From Escherichia coli (lineage in GTDB: Bacteria; Pseudomonadota; Gammaproteobacteria; Enterobacterales; Enterobacteriaceae), in the NCBI RefSeq assembly GCF_024298765.1, contig NZ_CP101210.1: 64,000 nucleotides of DNA; one strand, given 5' to 3'. The stretch's first letter is position 1, and every line of letters starts with the position of its first letter. Below are positions 14,920-24,271 of this stretch, in pieces. Position numbers and translations under genes: made by a program. The notes beneath the pieces are model-generated. The model did no database searches. It saw only the letters and a list, made by a program, of their open reading frames with translations, and was not told where the DNA came from.

Positions 14920-17900
14920 ATGGATGAAAATGCTTTAGGGTTTGCCTCATACTGGCGCAACTCGCTTGCGGACGCTGAGTCAGGAAAGGGCAGTTTTGAA
15001 CGGAAAGACGCCAAAAATTTCACTCATTGGCATGGGATAGCGGCGGGACGTCTTGACGAAGCGATTGTCAGTAAATTTTTTAAGGGAGAAAAAGACGATG
15101 TCGAAACGGTCGATGTCATCTTGCGCCCAAAAGTTTATTTCCGGTTACTGCAGCATGGTAAGGACCGTTCTGCAGGTGCGCCTGATATTGTTACCCCGAT
15201 AGTGACGCCAGCCTTGCTAAGCCGTGAGGGTTTTTTATATCCGACGCCAGCGACCTCCATTCCCAGAGACCTGCTTGAACCTTTGCCAAAAGGAGCATTT
15301 TCGATTGGTGAGATTGGGCAGTATGACAAATACAAGACGACCCATACCACGTTCTCTATCAACTTTGATGACAGCGTTGATAAGACTGCCGAAACGGATG
15401 AAGAACGGGAAGAACGATATGCAGCCTTGCAGCAGGAGTGGCGTCAATATCTGGATGATTCAGAGAGGCTGCTGAAGAACGTTGCCGGCGACTGGATTAA
15501 AAATCCTGAGCAATATGAACTCGCTGAGCACGGTTATATTGTTAAAACGGCGCAATCTGGCGGTGCCAGTTTCCATATCCTTTCTCTTTATGATCACCTG
15601 CTTGTTTGCAATAAGGATGTGCCGCTCTTCAATCGATTCGCCTCGCGAGAGGTTCATGCTGCAGAGTCTTTGCTGGCCCCTGGAGCAAAATTCAGCGACA
15701 GGCTTGGACACTCCGGAGATAAGTTTCCGCTGGCAAAGGCTCAGCGCGATGCCTTAAGCCATTTTCTGGATGCTAAACATGGCGATATCCTTGCTGTTAA
15801 TGGCCCTCCTGGAACCGGAAAAACCACGCTGGTGCTTTCTATCATCGCCACGCAGTGGGCCAGAGCGGCTCTCGAAAAATCTGAGCCTCCGGTTATTATC
15901 GCGACTTCAACGAATAACCAGGCTGTAACGAACATTATTGAGGCATTCGGGAAAGACTTTTCGCAAGGTTCAGGTGCGATGGCCGGGCGATGGTTGCCAG
16001 AGCTGAAAAGCTTCGGCGCTTATTTTCCCTCAGGCAGCCGTAAAGCTGAAGCAGCCAAAAAATATCAAACTGAAGATTTCTTCAACCAGGTTGAGTCAAA
16101 AGAGTATGTAGAAGATGCACTGCTGTTTTATCTGGAAAAGGCTAAGGCAGCCTTTCCTGAAAAAGAGTGTTCATCCCCTGAAAAGGTCATTGAACTCCTG
16201 CATGGTCAGTTGGCAGCAAAATCCGAGCAACTGATAAGACTGAACGCAACATGGCAAAAGTTAAGCCAGATTCGGGCTGCGCGTGAGCTTATTGCTAATG
16301 ATATTGAGCAATATCTCAATAATTTAAATAAATTACTTTCCGGACAAGAACAAAAAATCACTCTACTGAAGAGTGCTAAAACGGAATGGAAAAAATATCG
16401 CGCCGGTGAATCACTGATCTATTCATTATTTTCCTGGCTTCCGGCGGTTCGCAGTAAGCGACAGTACCAAATACAGCTGTTTCTCGAAGATAAATTAGGT
16501 GCGCTGATTGCAGGAAATCAATGGTCTGATCCTGAAACTATCGAACGTAATATTGATGGGCTGCTCAATTCCGCTGAGCGCGAGCAAACAACATACCGGC
16601 AGCAGATTGACTCCGCCCATGAAATCATTCTTAAAGAACAGCAGGCGGTTCAGGAGTGGCAGAGACTGGCTCTTGATTTAGGGTATGAGGGCGACGAGGA
16701 ACTGAGCTTCTCACAGGCCGATGAACTGGCTGATACGCAGATTCGCTTCCCTGCATTTTTACTGACGACTCACTACTGGGAAGGTCGTTGGCTGATGGAT
16801 ATGGCCAGCATTGATGATCTGCAGGAAGAGAAGAAGAAAAAAGGCGCTAAAGGGGTAACCGCCCGTTGGCAACGTCGAATGAAACTCACTCCATGTGTGG
16901 TGATGACATGCTATATGCTGCCCGGCAATATGCAGATAAGTGAGCACAAAGGACAGCGTAAATTCGAGAAAAGTTATTTGTATGATTTTGCCGATTTACT
17001 CATTGTCGATGAAGCCGGGCAGGTGCTTCCTGAAGTGGCTGCTGCCTCGTTTGCATTAGCTAAGAAGGCATTAGTGATTGGCGATACGGAGCAGATCCCG
17101 CCAATATGGAGTATTGCTCCTGCGATTGATATCGGTAACATGCTGGCGGAAAAAATTCTGTCTGGCAGTACGCAAGAAGAGATTACCGAGAAATATACGG
17201 CAATCGCAGACCTTGGTAAAAGTGCCGCATCTGGCAGCGTTATGAAAATAGCGCAGTTTGCTTCGCGCTATCAATATGATCCCGAACTGGCTCGTGGTAT
17301 GTACCTATATGAACACCGCCGGTGCTACGACAATATTATTGGATACTGTAATACGCTCTGCTATCACGGTAAGTTGTTGCCTAAAAGAGGGCGTGAAGAG
17401 AGCAATTTAATGCCCGCAATGGGGTATCTCCATATTGATGGTAAAGGAGAGCTGGCAAGTAGTGGAAGTCGATATAATTTGCTTGAGGCTGAAACGATAG
17501 CGGTCTGGTTGGCAGAGAACCAGCAAAATATTGAAGCGCATTACGGTAAATCGCTTCATGAAGTTGTCGGTATTGTGACGCCTTTTAGCGCTCAGGTATC
17601 CACTATCAAACAGGTGCTGGGCAAACAAGGTATCAGTACGGGCACGAATGAAAAGTCGCTCACAGTGGGCACCGTGCACTCTCTTCAGGGAGCGGAAAGA
17701 GCGATTGTGATATTCTCGCCAGTCTATTCAAAACATGAAGACGGCGGGTTTATTGATAGCGATAACAGCATGCTGAATGTTGCAGTCTCCCGTGCGAAGG
17801 ACAGTTTTCTGGTCTTCGGCGATATGGACCTGTTTGAGGTCCAGCCAGCCTCATCGCCACGGGGATTACTGGCAAAATACCTCTTTGAGTCAGAGAAGAA

Positions 17901-18435
17901 TGCGCTCTCTTTTGATTATAAAGAGCGTAAGGATTTAAAAACCGCCGGGACCAAAATCTACACACTTCATGGTGTGGAGCAACATGATAATTTCCTGAAT
18001 CAGACATTTGAAAATACCAGTAAACACATCACGATAGTTTCTCCATGGCTGACCTGGCAAAGGCTGGAGCAAACCGGTTTTCTTGATTCCATGATTGCGG
18101 CGTGTTCACGTGGAATTAACGTCACGATAGTCACTGACAGAAGCTACAACACTGAACATAATGATTTTGAGAAGCGAAAAGAGAAGCAGCAGAACTTTAA
18201 AGCGGCGCTGGAGAAACTGAATGCGCTGGGTATTGCTACAAAGCTGGTAAACCGTGTTCATAGCAAAATTGTTATTGGTGATGATGGTTTGCTGTGCGTG
18301 GGATCGTTCAACTGGTTTAGTGCGACACGGGAAGCGCGATATGAACGATACGATACATCAATGGTTTATTGCGGTGATAACCTGAAGGGTGAGATTGAGG
18401 CTATTTATAATAGTCTTGAGAGGCGGCAGGTTTAG
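14920..18435 (+). CDS. large SF1 (Upf1/DNA2-like) helicase fused to C-terminal PLD-family (HKD) nuclease; candidate single-gene anti-phage defence protein (Mokosh type II-like)
   Basis: 1171-aa ORF; Walker A GPPGTGKT at 15802..15825; Walker B-like LIVDEAGQ; motif VI-like [17 protein letters not shown]-terminal HxKxxxxD motif HSKIVIGDD at 18259..18285; first cargo gene after integrase. Confidence 0.7.
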
Positions 18436-18543
18436 AGCAGGAATGGTGAGTAGCCATCTTACCGATCGTTTTCGAGCGTAAGATGGCTGAATGGAATGGC
18501 TATTATTGCACAGTCCTTAATTATAACATTCATACCGACATGA

Positions 18544-20043
18544 TTATCTTCTGTCCGGAAGAATCAGAGGCTGTGGTTTCAGACTGTCTGCCGGTACATT
18601 CCTGTCTCCGTTAAAAACAATAACGGGTTCATTATCTTCGTCTGTCAGCGGATTGAATGGCGGTATATTTTCAGTACGAATGCCGGTCAGCCACTGAAAA
18701 ATACCTGCGAAATGACGGGCACTGATTTTTCTGCTGACGGACTGATGAGACGTGATGTCACTGGCGGTAATAATCAGGGGAACGCTGTAGCCTCCTTGTA
18801 TATGGCCATCATGATGAACAGGATTAGCACTGTCGCTGACCGACAGACCATGGTCAGAAAAGTAAAGCATGGCAAAATGACGGGAGTGCCGGCGAAGGAT
18901 ACCATCAAGCTGACCGAGAAAGTTATCCAGTTTACTGATGCTGGCGAGGTAACAGGCAATCTTTCGGGGATACTGCTCCAGGTAATGATTCGGCCAGGAG
19001 TTAAGTCGGTCACACGGATTCGGATGAGAGCCAATCATGTGCAGGAATATCACCTTCGGAGAGGATTTATCCGCCAGTGCACGTTCTGTTTCCTGTAACA
19101 ACAACATGTCATCCGTTTTACGGGAAGCAAAGCTGCCTTTCTTGAGGAAAACGGTATGCTCCGCATCAGAAGCAATAACAGAGATGCGTGTATCATGCTC
19201 CCCCAGTTTTCCCTGATTGGATATCCACCATGTGCTGTATCCTGCTTTTGCTGCCAGCGCCACCACGTTGTTGCCGGAGTCAGGGTTCTGCTCATAGTCA
19301 TAAATCAGTGTCCGGCTCAGGGAAGGTACGGTACTGGCTGCTGCCGATGTATAGCCGTCAATAAATAAACCGGGAGCCGTATTCAGCCATGGTGTGGTTG
19401 GCACGGGATAGCCATATACCGACATATAATCCCTGCGCACACTCTCACCAGTAACGATAACAATCGTGTCATACAACGGTGTTCCCGGCAGGATTTTCCA
19501 GTTGTCAGCCCCGTGCTGACTCAGTTGTTTATAACGCTGCATTTCACGCAATGTGTCAGTTGTTCCCACAACAATTCCTTTAACCATCCGCAACGGCCAG
19601 CTGTTTACAGAGCATAATACGAACAGCAGCAGTGCCAGCCAGTTACGGTGACCGCGGTGGTGTGTCCGCCAGAAAATCACCATGAATACCAGAATCGCGG
19701 CACTGACCAGAAAATGATAAACAGGAATCATCCCGGTAAACTCTGCAGCCTCATCAGCCGTGGTCTGCAGCAACGCGACAATAAAACTGTTGTTGATTTT
19801 ACCGTACGTCATACCCGCAGGCGCATACAGTGCACAACAGAACAGAAATAACAGCGTTGTAATGGATGTGAGGGTATTTCTGTGTGCAAGGAGCAGAAGG
19901 AGAAACAGAAGCAGCACATTTCCTGTGGCATTCTTCTCAGTGTATCCGCATGCAATTGTGGTTATCACAGAAATAACAAAAAAGAATAAAAACAATAAAA
20001 TCCGGGGTGTGTCGCCCGGACAAAACAGTTTTCTGATATTCAT
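18544..20043 (-). CDS. phosphoethanolamine transferase / sulfatase-superfamily inner-membrane protein (EptA/MCR-like family)
   Basis: 499-aa ORF; N-terminal multi-TM region then periplasmic domain with VTGESVRRDYMSVYGYP (cf. GE[T/S]AR nucleophile motif of EptA/MCR), HMIGSHPNP and FSDHG metal-site motifs. Confidence 0.7.
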   Translation of the reverse strand: MNIRKLFCPGDTPRILLFLFFFVISVITTIACGYTEKNATGNVLLLFLLLLLAHRNTLTSITTLLFLFCCALYAPAGMTYGKINNSFIVALLQTTADEAAEFTGMIPVYHFLVSAAILVFMVIFWRTHHRGHRNWLALLLFVLCSVNSWPLRMVKGIVVGTTDTLREMQRYKQLSQHGADNWKILPGTPLYDTIVIVTGESVRRDYMSVYGYPVPTTPWLNTAPGLFIDGYTSAAASTVPSLSRTLIYDYEQNPDSGNNVVALAAKAGYSTWWISNQGKLGEHDTRISVIASDAEHTVFLKKGSFASRKTDDMLLLQETERALADKSSPKVIFLHMIGSHPNPCDRLNSWPNHYLEQYPRKIACYLASISKLDNFLGQLDGILRRHSRHFAMLYFSDHGLSVSDSANPVHHDGHIQGGYSVPLIITASDITSHQSVSRKISARHFAGIFQWLTGIRTENIPPFNPLTDEDNEPVIVFNGDRNVPADSLKPQPLILPDRR

Positions 20044-20224
20044 CGGAGTATATCGACAACATTATTATGAAGAGAACAGGATAATAAAAATCAGAAATTA
20101 TCTGTAAAACAGATAACAGACAACCCTGCAGCAATAGACTGCAGGGTGTTTCTGTTTAATTGCAGAAGATATACAATTATATTAATTACAGAATATTCGT
20201 GATTATCTCTCGGGAACAGTGTTG

Positions 20225-20965
20225 TCAGAAGTTATAAGTCACACCAAGCATGATGTCATGACTTTTAACATCAACTTCTGACTTATATTTATCGCCCCAC
20301 TCGTCCTTGTAACTCACACTGCTGTCACCTGCATCAAGATAGCGATAGCTGAGGTCCAGAGCGATATCCGGGGTTACGTCATAGCGGACACCCGCGCCAA
20401 GGTTCCATGCGAAGTTGTCAGCAGAGCCTGAACGTGACAACGATTCGCGACCACTGCTTCCGTACTCATAATCCCAGGTACTGATACCGGTTGTTTTCTG
20501 GTGAATTCTGGCGTAGCCAATCCCTGCAGATATCCAAGGTGTGAATGCGCTGTCATTCCGGAAGTCATAGTACGCATTCAGCATTAGTGTGTTGACTGAC
20601 ACCTCATTCTTCAGGTCATCACGCCAGTAACCACCTGACCAACTGTCTTTATCTACGTTATACTTCGAATCAGCTTTTCCACGAGCGTAAAACTCCAGTT
20701 CTGTACGAACCGGAATACTGAACTGCGGATAAAAATCATAACCAGCCGCGATACCACCACTGAATACCGTATCATGGTCATCGCCGCCTTTATACTTTGA
20801 CGTTTCTTCCTCATCTCCTGACAGGAAACGCTGGTCTGAAAGTGACACCACAGAGGTACCGGCTTTACCGGTCAGATAAAAACCGCTTTTACCTTCCTCA
20901 GCACCTGCATTTGCTGCAAATACACAGGCTGCGGCCACCACTGAAACAGCAAAAACCTTTTTCAT
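20225..20965 (-). CDS. outer-membrane beta-barrel protein (OmpA-like transmembrane barrel family)
   Basis: 246-aa ORF; Sec signal peptide MKKVFAVSVVAAACVFAANA; alternating amphipathic beta-strands; C-terminal aromatic residue (GVTYNF) typical of OMPs. Confidence 0.7.
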   Translation of the reverse strand: MKKVFAVSVVAAACVFAANAGAEEGKSGFYLTGKAGTSVVSLSDQRFLSGDEEETSKYKGGDDHDTVFSGGIAAGYDFYPQFSIPVRTELEFYARGKADSKYNVDKDSWSGGYWRDDLKNEVSVNTLMLNAYYDFRNDSAFTPWISAGIGYARIHQKTTGISTWDYEYGSSGRESLSRSGSADNFAWNLGAGVRYDVTPDIALDLSYRYLDAGDSSVSYKDEWGDKYKSEVDVKSHDIMLGVTYNF

Positions 20966-21452
20966 TTCAATTATCTCCGTTATTGCTCCGTTGCTGCAAG
21001 CAGTACTCAGTGCATTTTAAAACCCGCCATGCTATAGCCTCAATCGAATAAAATCGATCGAATCGATCGATGATATCGATCGTCATTAACCAGAAATTTT
21101 TATCGTATTCAGTCAGCACAGACACAACAAATGCATGCCATGCAGGCAGCCATGCCCCGTCGCGACAGATGGTAGCAGTGGGCTGGCGAAGAGCAGAATT
21201 AATAAAATTTGTTTATTCTGTCAGGAGATAAGGTGTCACCTGTTCATGAACACAATTAAGGAAGAGACATACATGAGCTGACTGGCAGTCCAGAGTGCAT
21301 GCGGTTACAAGCCGGAAAGGTGAACCGGTATAACCAGTGAGCAGAGTTTGTGAAGGGGGGATATAAAAAAGCCCACTGCATGGCTGCGGGTAAAGAGTCA
21401 GTTATTTCCGGCGTTTTTCAAGGTAGTTGTCGCCTGATGTAATAAAATTACG

Positions 21453-21790
21453 TTATGCCGCTTCTTTTTCTGGATTCAGATAAACTGCCTGAATGAGTTC
21501 CCAGTCACGCAACTGTTTGCTCCAGCGCTCAGGATGACGCTTGCGAGCTTCGCGATAAACTTTTTTTCTGGCTTCCAGTATTTGTGCATCAATTCCGCGA
21601 TGGCGTTCATCCGGAGTAACATACTTAATACCGCTGTGCTTGTGTTCCAGGTTGTACCATTACGTGAACTTGCTTAACCAACTTCTGGCTTCATCTATGG
21701 TTCGAAAACCATTCTCCGGCCACCATGAACAATACTTAATCGTCCGGAAGAGCGATTCGGAATAAAGAAGTGTTACTGGCAGTTCTTTCA
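21453..21790 (-). pseudogene. remnant of IS3-family transposase OrfB (C-terminal part, in-frame stop)
   Basis: Minus-strand translation gives ...GFRTIDEARSWLSKFT*WYNLEHKHSGIKYVTPDERHRGIDAQILEARKKVYREARKRHPERWS..., typical integrase-core C-terminus, interrupted by a stop; no intact ORF. Confidence 0.5.
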
Positions 21791-21820
21791 TCGCATCAGT
21801 GAAAACCAGCAGGGCACTGC

Positions 21821-22162
21821 TCACCAGAGCAACACAGGAAAGTGAACCCGAACAAAAGTTCCTGTACCATTTTCTCCCAGCAGACGTGAGGCTTGTTCCA
21901 GTGACGCTGGTATACGTCCCAGCCGGACATCAAGTGCGCCGATGGCTATTGCCTGAAATCGCATCGTACAGCAAATCACCAACAGGACACCGACAGACAT
22001 TAAAGGTAACCCCCTGTAATCCAGTAGTTCCGACAGCCAGCGGTCATTTAGGGAGTCAGAAAACCAATCGCCAGAATCGTGCCCGGAAAGGCATAACCCA
22101 GCGACGCCCCTCTCATCACACCGCGCCTGAACAGTGGCATAGCGTTGAGGAATTCCGGGCAT
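21821..22162 (-). pseudogene. possible fragment of an ABC-transporter permease gene
   Basis: 113-aa ORF contains permease-like EAA-loop-type segment (IPASLEQASRLLG) but is far too short and lacks context. Confidence 0.25.
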
Positions 22163-22291
22163 TCCAGACTACGAGCAGACTGACAAAAATTACGACAAAG
22201 CGTTGAAGGAAGCCAGCGCGCGGACTGACAGGACTTTACCATAAAAACACAGGCTAACCGCGCCTGCGTTTTTAATGACGGATAAACAGAA

Positions 22292-24271
22292 TCAGGTGCC
22301 GATTATGCCGCCGTCGGCTTTTACGATAACGACAGTTGAGGAGCGCGGACGACCAGCCTTATCGCCGTCAGGCCAGCTTGATACTGCCGTCGGATGCTGC
22401 GGATCGCTAAGCCCTTCGCTTGGCTCGCCAGGGTGCTGGATGTTAATAAACAGCGTCCGGTTATCCGGAGTGAACGCGATGCCGGTGATTTCGCAGCCGC
22501 GCGGGCCGGTCAGGAAGCGGCGGAACTCATTGGTACCGGGGATCGTCGCCACCATCTGGTTGTTGCCCATGCCTTTGTAATCTTTACTATTGATGGTTGA
22601 TGACGACACGTCGGTCTGGATCCATAGCACGCCGCGGTGATCGAAGCTCAGGCCATCGGCGCTGCCGAATTCCGCCCCCTTCATGCTGCCTTTGGTTTCC
22701 GGTTTGTCCGTATCGGTGCGACCGCCCATCACAAGAATATCCCAGGCAAACTGCAGCGCGGTCGGGTCACCGTTATGCTCCAACCAGTGAATGATGTGGC
22801 CGTAAACGTTTTTGGCGCGCGGGTTGGCCGCATCCACTGGCGCTTTTCCTTCCTTACCGCGATCGCTGTTGTTGGTGAGCGTGCAGTAAACGCTGCCGGC
22901 GTGATATGGATCGACCGCAATCCACTCCGGGCGGTCCATTTTAGTGGCCCCCACGGCGTCTGCCGCCAGACGGGTTTTAATCAACAGGTCGCCCTGGTTT
23001 TCAAACCCTTTACTGGCGTCGAGCCCATTTTGTCCGAACACCAGCGGTAGCCACTCGCCTTTGCCGTCGTCGTTAAATTTCGCCACGTACAGAGTGCCTT
23101 TTTCCAGCAGGTGCATGTTGGCTTTGCGATCCTGCGGGTTGAATTTTCCTTCCGAGACAAATTTATATATGTATTCGAATTTCTGGTCATCGCCCATATA
23201 GACCACAACGCGGTTATCCGGGGCAATTGTCACCGCTGCGCCTTCGTGTTTGATGCGACCAAGCGCGGTGTGCTTGCGCGGCACTGAATGCGGATCGTAT
23301 GGATCGATTTCCACCACCCAGCCGAAGCGGTTCGGCTCGTTCGGCGTGGCGTCGACGCTGAACCTTTTATCCACTTCGTTCCAGCGGTAAGAGTCGTCGC
23401 TCCCGCTGATACCGTAACGTTTTTCCAGCGGGTTCATCTCTGCTTTTTTTACGAAAATATCGGACCAGTTCTCTTCACACGTCAGATAGGTGCCCCACGG
23501 CGTAAATCCGTTGGCACAGTTCTGCATGGTGCCGAGAATGATTTCGCCTTTCGGATCGTCAACTGTTTGCATCAGTGGGTTATGCAGCGCCGGACCGGTG
23601 ATTTTCATCGGCGTGTTAACGGTGATGCGGCGTGCGAAAGATGACGGGCGCACCACTTCCCAGCCCAGGGGCACTTTTTTTACTTCAATGACCGACACGC
23701 CCATCGCGTTCTGGCCTTTAAGAGCTTTATCGGCGCTCCAGTTGGCATCGCCATCTTTAAACAGTAGACCGTTATCGATGTATTCATGGTTTATGGCAAG
23801 CAGGCCGTGATCGGAGCTGTTCCCGCCCTGCGGCAGGCTAAACCACGCCATGCCGTCGTGGTGCATCCCGGCCTGCGCCGCCTGTTCTTCCGTGGTGTTG
23901 CTACCGTCGGTTTTAAAAACCGGCAGATTTCCGGCAATCCCGGTGGCGTCGCCCCATTTGTAGAAGGGCTTCGCGATGTATCCTTCCGGCACGATAACGG
24001 TATCTTCCGTGGAAACCGGCAGGCTGGTGAAACCGAGCGTCGTCGCTTTGCCGAGGTTACCGCTTGCTTTGGAGACCACTTTCGCCAGCGCGTTTTCCTG
24101 TTTCAGCAGAAATGGGAACGCTGCCGCGGCACCGGCGACCGTGCCTGCCTGTAACAGACGGCGGCGTGACAAATAGACTTCCGCCACCTGCGAAAACGCG
24201 CGGTTATCGCTCGGGTTACTGATTTCTTCACTATGCTCACGTTTGAATAAAGTTTTTAACGGTCTGCCCAT
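22292..24271 (-). CDS. phoX: Tat-secreted PhoX-family alkaline phosphatase (DUF839-like)
   Basis: 659-aa ORF; twin-arginine signal (SRRRLLQAGTVAGAAAAF); overall resemblance to PhoX family by memory. Confidence 0.6.
   Translation of the reverse strand: MGRPLKTLFKREHSEEISNPSDNRAFSQVAEVYLSRRRLLQAGTVAGAAAAFPFLLKQENALAKVVSKASGNLGKATTLGFTSLPVSTEDTVIVPEGYIAKPFYKWGDATGIAGNLPVFKTDGSNTTEEQAAQAGMHHDGMAWFSLPQGGNSSDHGLLAINHEYIDNGLLFKDGDANWSADKALKGQNAMGVSVIEVKKVPLGWEVVRPSSFARRITVNTPMKITGPALHNPLMQTVDDPKGEIILGTMQNCANGFTPWGTYLTCEENWSDIFVKKAEMNPLEKRYGISGSDDSYRWNEVDKRFSVDATPNEPNRFGWVVEIDPYDPHSVPRKHTALGRIKHEGAAVTIAPDNRVVVYMGDDQKFEYIYKFVSEGKFNPQDRKANMHLLEKGTLYVAKFNDDGKGEWLPLVFGQNGLDASKGFENQGDLLIKTRLAADAVGATKMDRPEWIAVDPYHAGSVYCTLTNNSDRGKEGKAPVDAANPRAKNVYGHIIHWLEHNGDPTALQFAWDILVMGGRTDTDKPETKGSMKGAEFGSADGLSFDHRGVLWIQTDVSSSTINSKDYKGMGNNQMVATIPGTNEFRRFLTGPRGCEITGIAFTPDNRTLFINIQHPGEPSEGLSDPQHPTAVSSWPDGDKAGRPRSSTVVIVKADGGIIGT

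Follow-up and report, generated by a model that had tools for sequence, protein, structure and literature searches.

What does a dense cluster of palindromes do in front of an outer membrane protein (OMP) gene on an Escherichia coli genomic island? We addressed this question in a 64-kb stretch of DNA, here called the window. The sequence-only reading of this DNA had reported several overlapping ATCGAT palindromes about 80 bp upstream of the OMP start and suggested that they could be an operator for a dimeric regulator. We found the palindrome-rich cluster at 21044 to 21082, and the string quoted for it, cgaataaaatcgatcgaatcgatcgatgatatcgatcg, is present at 21045 to 21082. The OMP gene is on the minus strand (20225 to 20965, with its ATG at 20965), and thus the cluster lies upstream of it. 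The four ATCGAT hexamers of the cluster are at 21053, 21062, 21066, and 21075, 88 to 117 nt upstream of the ATG, in agreement with the reported distance. The literal palindrome GATCGATC, also quoted, is absent. The palindromes that actually overlap here are three copies of CGATCG and two of TCGATCGA, the latter arranged as TCGATCGA-T-TCGATCGA.

Many APEC and ExPEC chromosomes carry the region around the cluster with 100% identity. This region belongs to a tRNA-Phe genomic island, which is at the pheU site in the strains that match the wider window (dsbD-dicD-tRNA-Phe-integrase). In APEC E19035, the same module of an OMP gene and a phosphoethanolamine transferase gene is at pheV. The gene order is integrase, a gene for an 1171-amino-acid helicase/PLD protein on the plus strand (14920 to 18435), the phosphoethanolamine transferase gene on the minus strand (18544 to 20043; Pfam Sulfatase and EptA_B_N), and the OMP gene on the minus strand. 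The 1171-amino-acid helicase and PLD-nuclease protein is MkoC-like, with a full-length PADLOC match to MkoC (E = 0) of Mokosh type II anti-phage defense; this match adjoins the island integrase, and RefSeq labels the protein only "AAA domain-containing protein." Its gene is convergent to the OMP/transferase unit, and the other neighbors are insertion sequence (IS) or pseudogene remnants. Upstream of the cluster are a fragmentary iron ABC transporter permease pseudogene (within 21660 to 24271) and an intact PhoX-family alkaline phosphatase gene (22292 to 24271, minus strand), followed by IS3 and IS66 elements. The island is a mosaic.

The OMP gene encodes a 246-amino-acid outer membrane beta-barrel protein of the Hra/Hek/Tia adhesin family. 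The protein matches Pfam OMP_b-brl (E = 5.9e-22) and Opacity, is a beta-barrel of ~25 kDa homologous to Tia and Hek, and is ~63% identical to a protein named Tia by PGAP. Databases call it adhesin or opacity-like, and its sister 90% clusters are named Hek and Tia. Proteins of this family are adhesins, invasins, and autoaggregation factors, and Hra1, Hek, Hes, and Tia occur in ExPEC, APEC, EAEC, ETEC, and LEE-negative STEC (PMC5539235, PMC8286834). Functional work on these adhesins used inducible promoters (PMC8286834, PMC5539235), and we found no account of native Hra/Hek/Tia regulation in the literature that we searched. We presume that the OMP gene is the target of the putative switch described below.

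ATCGAT is not enriched in the window as a whole (21 copies observed, 18.4 expected). The local density is nevertheless unusual: in 300 dinucleotide-preserving shuffles, three or more copies never fell within 28 bp. The same cluster contains three Dam sites, a GATC triad at 21056 to 21081, with the distal site at 21078 to 21081, the central site at 21065 to 21068, and the proximal site at 21056 to 21059. Toward the gene, the spacing is 13 and then 9 bp. The sites at 21056, 21065, and 21078 are the only GATCs between 18467 and 22402 (3.9 kb), and the next ones are 1324 bp upstream and 2592 bp downstream. The entire OMP and transferase unit (18468 to 21055) is free of GATC at an ordinary GC content of 0.47. 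Only one GATC gap in the window is longer than this one of 2592 bp, and the mean spacing is ~300 bp.

By consensus scan, we predicted a sigma-70 promoter for the OMP gene at 21014 to 21043 on the minus strand, with a -35 element TTGAGG (21043 to 21038), an 18-nt spacer, and a -10 element TAAAAT (21019 to 21014), which would put +1 near 21007. Relative to this predicted promoter, the three GATCs are at about -73, -60, and -51, and the triad adjoins the predicted -35. The 17-mer TCGATCGATTCGATCGA (21053 to 21069, minus strand) spans the central and proximal GATCs. The segment ATCGATGATATCGAT (21066 to 21080), between the central and distal GATCs, is an ATC-N9-GAT LysR-type box.

The sequence-only reading had proposed a search for the palindromes upstream of homologues. 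We ran this check, and the motif persists upstream of diverged hra/tia alleles despite nearly unrelated flanks. The upstream regions of other family members form several classes. The tia-type upstream region (L004, a BLAST match) is 71% identical overall to that of the window. The 17-mer is 100% identical between the window-type and tia-type regions while the flanks are essentially unrelated, and the three GATCs are in the same register (tia-type GATCGATTTTGTCGATCGATTCGATCGA versus window GATCGATATCATCGATCGATTCGATCGA). Two loci found by protein-similarity search, a motif-independent route, also carry GATCs at offsets 0, 13, and 22 (L011 and L012), and one of the two has a fourth GATC 9 bp further on. 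In most of the identity classes sampled (99, 98, 94, 93, 91, 83, 81, and 76%), the triad is intact and the changes are in the flanks.

At a coverage of at least 80%, the tia-type 106-bp region is present in 1,509 of 5,426 complete E. coli genomes (~28%). The window-type upstream region is present in ~104 of the complete E. coli genomes searched. Carriers of the element include APEC E19035 (NZ_CP126926), strain B771 (NZ_CP120557), and E. coli ATCC 11775. We also retrieved 54 metagenomic Hra-linked copies with a pattern that required the GATCs, and these copies therefore show allele diversity, not independent conservation. In hek-type UPEC loci, the motif at first seemed absent; it is further upstream, beyond a gene for a 122-amino-acid hypothetical protein. 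A protein search of genome contigs returned few close relatives, and the Arsenophonus and more distant homologues from that search have no triad. A BLAST search of the 71-bp element against a phage collection gave chance hits only.

Two further elements accompany the triad. In 19 of 19 regions, including that of the Salmonella std operon, a -10-like hexamer (TAAAAT, TAGAAT, or TATAAA) is 33 to 36 nt downstream of the proximal GATC. An ungapped alignment of the 19 regulatory regions also contains a CGATAA(A/G)AAA box (21100 to 21105, minus strand, in the window) that starts 24 nt upstream of the distal GATC. The box is kept in most Hra-family alleles and in two loci designated L040 and L159, and it does not match the OxyR half-site consensus.

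The conservation also bears on the proposal of a plain palindromic operator, to which a dimeric helix-turn-helix regulator would bind irrespective of Dam methylation. At about -55, TCGATCGA-T-TCGATCGA forms a perfect inverted repeat (8+1+8), and the site is conserved upstream of homologues. However, the std version of the site (GATCAAT...GATCTTATCGATCTAT) and the four-GATC alleles have broken palindromes and keep the GATCs with their 13/9 spacing. The conserved feature across homologues is thus three GATCs at 13 and 9 bp and not the ATCGAT hexamers. In addition, natural variants hit the GATCs specifically, and no regulator gene adjoins the OMP/transferase unit. We consider a plain operator quite unlikely. 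The general idea of a regulator-binding site was right, since the motif is kept upstream of homologues; the palindromes as the conserved element and the dimeric regulator did not hold up. LysR-type regulators bind as tetramers, and the closest characterized elements are LysR-type sites at which Dam methylation blocks binding, of HdfR at std and of OxyR at agn43, gtr, and mom. This suggests that the cluster is part of an epigenetic switch and not the operator of a simple dimeric repressor.

The closest of these elements is the upstream activating sequence (UAS) of the Salmonella std operon. The std UAS contains three GATCs in 25 bp, at -242, -229, and -220, which is a spacing of 13 and 9 (PMC6735912). 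HdfR, a LysR-type regulator, binds an unmethylated but not a methylated std UAS probe; binding needs GATC-2 and GATC-3, and HdfR protects both from Dam (PMC6735912). The std operon is bistable, and Std-ON cells carry nonmethylated GATC sites (PMC6735912). We reached the S. Typhimurium std sequence (L162) through a StdA homologue and found its GATCs at 1775, 1788, and 1797. We found that GATCAATATCATCGATCTTATCGATC of std and GATCGATATCATCGATCGATTCGATC of the window are identical at 22 of 26 positions, and at 10 of 14 when the GATC columns are set aside. The flanks agree at only 17/45 and 18/42 positions (~40%). One metagenomic locus (L044) links the two systems: a triad 23/26 identical to that of the window precedes genes for a StdA homologue and then an usher. 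Like std, the cluster has three GATCs in 25 to 26 bp spaced 13 and then 9 bp toward the gene, a -10-like hexamer ~35 nt downstream, and a position upstream of a horizontally acquired adhesin locus. The 17-mer is the counterpart of the std GATC pair needed for HdfR. E. coli K-12 carries an annotated hdfR gene.

We therefore propose that the cluster is a std-type Dam/HdfR epigenetic switch, or UAS, for the promoter of the Hra/Hek/Tia-family adhesin, and we give this reading a probability of roughly 0.5. The proposal builds on observed features: the sequence and spacing of the triad, its position relative to the predicted promoter, its conservation across alleles, and its near-identity to the std site. 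From homology to std, we infer the identity of the binder, its methylation sensitivity at the adhesin locus, the direction of regulation, and bistability. According to this model, a LysR-type regulator, most likely HdfR, would bind the region of the central and proximal GATCs only when it is unmethylated. The bound regulator, sitting just upstream of the -35, would activate adhesin transcription. Dam methylation of the GATCs would block binding, and the bound regulator would shield the GATCs from Dam after replication. If methylation blocks binding and binding blocks methylation, then each state would perpetuate itself. A culture would split into heritable adhesin-OFF and adhesin-ON lineages, and the model accordingly predicts that the adhesin is ON or OFF in subpopulations of cells.

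The element in the window also differs from std. Its presumed target is a single OMP adhesin gene, possibly together with the transferase gene, in contrast to a chaperone-usher operon, and its GATCs are each extended to CGATCG or ATCGAT. The published UAS is ~220 bp from +1, whereas the triad in the window adjoins the predicted -35, ~90 nt from the ATG. In our hands, the published std numbering did not fit the std sequence that we fetched, and the promoter geometry of std may therefore differ from that of the window. The std switch further depends on StdE and StdF, both products of the std operon (PMC6735912). Within the OMP/transferase unit, we found no stdE or stdF, only the OMP and transferase genes. 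The hdfR promoter region of K-12, the hdfR-maoP intergenic region, has no triad-like site. We know of no HdfR consensus motif with which the cluster could be scored, and to our knowledge std in Salmonella is so far the only HdfR/Dam switch. In the literature that we searched, Hra1, Hek, Hes, and Tia are linked neither to Dam, HdfR, or OxyR nor to phase variation; one review covers the adhesins and these regulatory topics, but apart from each other. The primary adhesin papers were outside this search, and a prior description is possible. No GATC site is reported as unmethylated in the methylome papers on ST131 and avian E. coli or in their supplements.

There are two further rival readings. In the first, the cluster folds, as RNA or DNA, into a hairpin that would stop read-through from upstream into the mobile two-gene module, acting as an intrinsic terminator or insulator. 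On the gene strand, a scan picked out an 8-bp stem with TTTATT after it, a stem in tia-type alleles precedes AUUUUCUCUUUUU, and the cluster marks the upstream edge of homology between alleles. The folding energies, however, are no different from those of shuffled sequences (z = -1.6, -0.4, and -0.9), and the std version forms only a 4-bp stem. Runs of self-complementary GATC and CGATCG give hairpins as a by-product. We regard a terminator or insulator as most improbable.

In the second, the cluster is a relic that has no function, a short repeat rich in TCGA and GATC that came with the island. At least one GATC triad within 26 bp appears in 35% of 64-kb shuffles, so that such a triad is weak evidence when taken alone, and several lineages have lost sites (L003, L005, and L175). 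The case for the triad, however, rests on its position and conservation, not on its rarity. Register and sequence are kept across alleles with ~40% flank identity and across genes and species, and the distance to the -10-like hexamer is fixed. A relic is, in our estimate, very unlikely.

Several natural variants affect the GATCs. In L002 (at about 1620 to 1650) and in L170, the central GATC has become TATC by a G-to-T change; the two changes are independent and occur in different allele backgrounds. In L003, all three GATCs have been lost by three separate changes (GAAC, a 4-bp deletion, and GTTC). L005 is decayed and retains no GATC, and in L175 a deletion of 46 bp has spared only the proximal GATC. 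Judged from their sequences, these five are candidate "locked" alleles.

Another regulator could be responsible for a switch of this general kind. Dam also controls phase variation together with OxyR, as in agn43, gtr, opvAB, and Mu mom. On this reading, OxyR would bind the unmethylated triad in the window and Dam methylation would exclude it. At the OMP promoter, OxyR would act as a repressor with its second half-site over the -35 and as an activator from a position further upstream. In the known OxyR/Dam switches, GATC pairs 13 bp apart are inside an OxyR half-site (PMC2909390, PMC4856963). The distal and central GATC pair of the window has the G-ATCGnTnnnAnCGAT-C form of the proven half-sites of agn43 and gtr. 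The agn43 half-site ATCGTTTATATCGAT and the P22 gtr half-sites ATCGGTAACAACGAT and ATCGCTTGTATCGAT have the same form as this pair, Mu mom contains a near-identical string, CGATCGAATCAAT, and the core ATCGATCG-N3-ATATCGATCG is common to the window and agn43. We scored the cluster against the OxyR half-site consensus ATAGnTnnnAnCTAT, on which known switches score 7 to 10 of 10. The segments at 21066 to 21080 and 21053 to 21067 each scored 8/10, a value of 8 or more being reached by only 0.045% of window positions. Against the full 37-bp OxyR consensus, the cluster scored 14/20, the same value as the genuine agn43 site and a joint maximum for the 64-kb window. The cluster sequence is equally compatible with the OxyR half-site rules. 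The central G-to-T changes in L002 and L170 turn the half-site toward CTAT, and the L002 score rises to 9/10. The targets are also alike: OxyR/Dam switches control surface and autoaggregation factors by competition between a LysR-type regulator and Dam, a GATC pair 13 bp apart in a ATAGnTnnnAnCTAT-like half-site is common to the cluster and to agn43, gtr, opvAB, and mom, and Ag43 is an autoaggregation factor, as are Hra1 and Hek (PMC8286834).

The arrangement of half-sites speaks both for and against OxyR. For binding of an OxyR tetramer, a second half-site is needed at 22 bp (oxidized) or 32 bp (reduced), the 32-bp offset being the spacing described for reduced OxyR (PMC4856963). The window-type allele has a 7/10 half-site 32 bp downstream, overlapping the -35. 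This partner is weak and not conserved, however, scoring 5/10 in tia-type alleles, where none reaches 7. The two good half-sites overlap at an offset of 13 bp, which keeps a single tetramer from engaging both in the usual manner. In agn43 and mom, the GATCs are spaced 19 or 18 and then 13 bp apart, unlike the triad in the window, where the third GATC is 9 bp away. The gtr and opvAB switches combine four GATCs with three or four half-sites at 32-bp intervals, unlike the cluster, which is without a conserved second half-site. Finally, the std UAS is the nearest match in sequence and has identical three-site spacing, and the binder there is, by experiment, HdfR (PMC6735912). An OxyR/Dam switch is the main rival but a doubtful one, and we prefer the std-type Dam/HdfR switch.

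Two other types of adhesin control were considered and rejected. Pap switches use two GATCs ~102 bp apart within Lrp sites, plus the papI and papB genes. The Pap family (pap, sfa, daa, fae, and pef) resembles the locus in its Dam-dependent ON/OFF control of adhesins on pathogenicity islands. A Pap-type Lrp/PapI/Dam switch is ruled out by GATC spacing, there being no other GATC within 1324 bp upstream and 2592 bp downstream of the triad, and by gene content, with no papI- or papB-like gene annotated beside the unit. The ucl promoter of the ExPEC Ucl fimbriae is activated by OxyR through a LysR-type site at about -82 to -66, where natural single nucleotide polymorphisms tune expression (PMC9236248). 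Like the OMP gene, ucl is an island-encoded ExPEC adhesin locus with a LysR-type site. Unlike the cluster, it has a canonical OxyR site, GATAGgtgcaatCTATC, and no GATC triad, with no Dam role reported (PMC9236248). The ucl OxyR site is a different sequence, which rules out that the two are the same element. The fimbrial operon of L044 is likewise neither ucl nor from E. coli.

The gene content next to the triad varies among loci. The phosphoethanolamine transferase gene follows the OMP gene in most loci examined, a conserved synteny; it is truncated in L003, and an IS3 transposase takes its place in L170. Between the OMP and transferase genes of the window are a hairpin with a 10-bp stem, ACCCTGCAG...CTGCAGGGT (20123 to 20147), and a promoter-like site, TTTACA-16-TATTAT (20108 to 20081). 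The transferase gene may thus have its own promoter, and it is uncertain whether the two genes are cotranscribed. In the hek-type UPEC loci (L165, 729 to 1097; L007, L173, and L174), the gene for the 122-amino-acid hypothetical protein WP_001275822 is between the triad/promoter and the OMP gene, and these loci possibly contain a three-gene unit that includes it. In strain SF-468 (L004, 1885 to 2895), the tia and transferase module is directly downstream of papG-II, at the end of the pap operon, so that two differently regulated adhesin systems abut.

The triad followed by the -10 element also occurs outside E. coli in front of non-Hra genes, on metagenome and viral contigs (L044, L063/L149, L159, and L040). 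The downstream genes include a std-like fimbrial operon (L044) and a gene for a 287-amino-acid exported protein that has no Pfam match and is beside DUF932 and RadC genes. The other contexts are two small signal-peptide proteins on an IMG/VR viral contig and one unknown gene. We found no E. coli counterpart of the L149 and L159 contexts. A broader and more tentative proposal is that the triad and promoter form a portable epigenetic switch cassette, placed before unrelated surface or secreted genes on Enterobacterales islands. HdfR and Dam may then control a "surface regulon," with mutations of the central GATC as lineage-specific locks.

On the sequence evidence, the element at the adhesin promoter is a purely predicted addition to a known type of switch, notable for its prevalence in E. 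coli and its apparent portability. If the portable-cassette reading is true, the cassette would define a previously unrecognized phase-variable regulon of horizontally acquired genes, and roughly 30% of E. coli genomes would have it in front of Hra/Tia/Hek adhesin genes. If the std-like switch is true, E. coli would supply a further case of the very few HdfR/Dam switches, and the signature GATC-N9-GATC-N5-GATC with a -10 element ~35 nt later would serve to find more phase-variable island genes. Only some cells would make the adhesins, with Dam in control, and this would affect how expression, vaccine-antigen, and colonization studies are interpreted.
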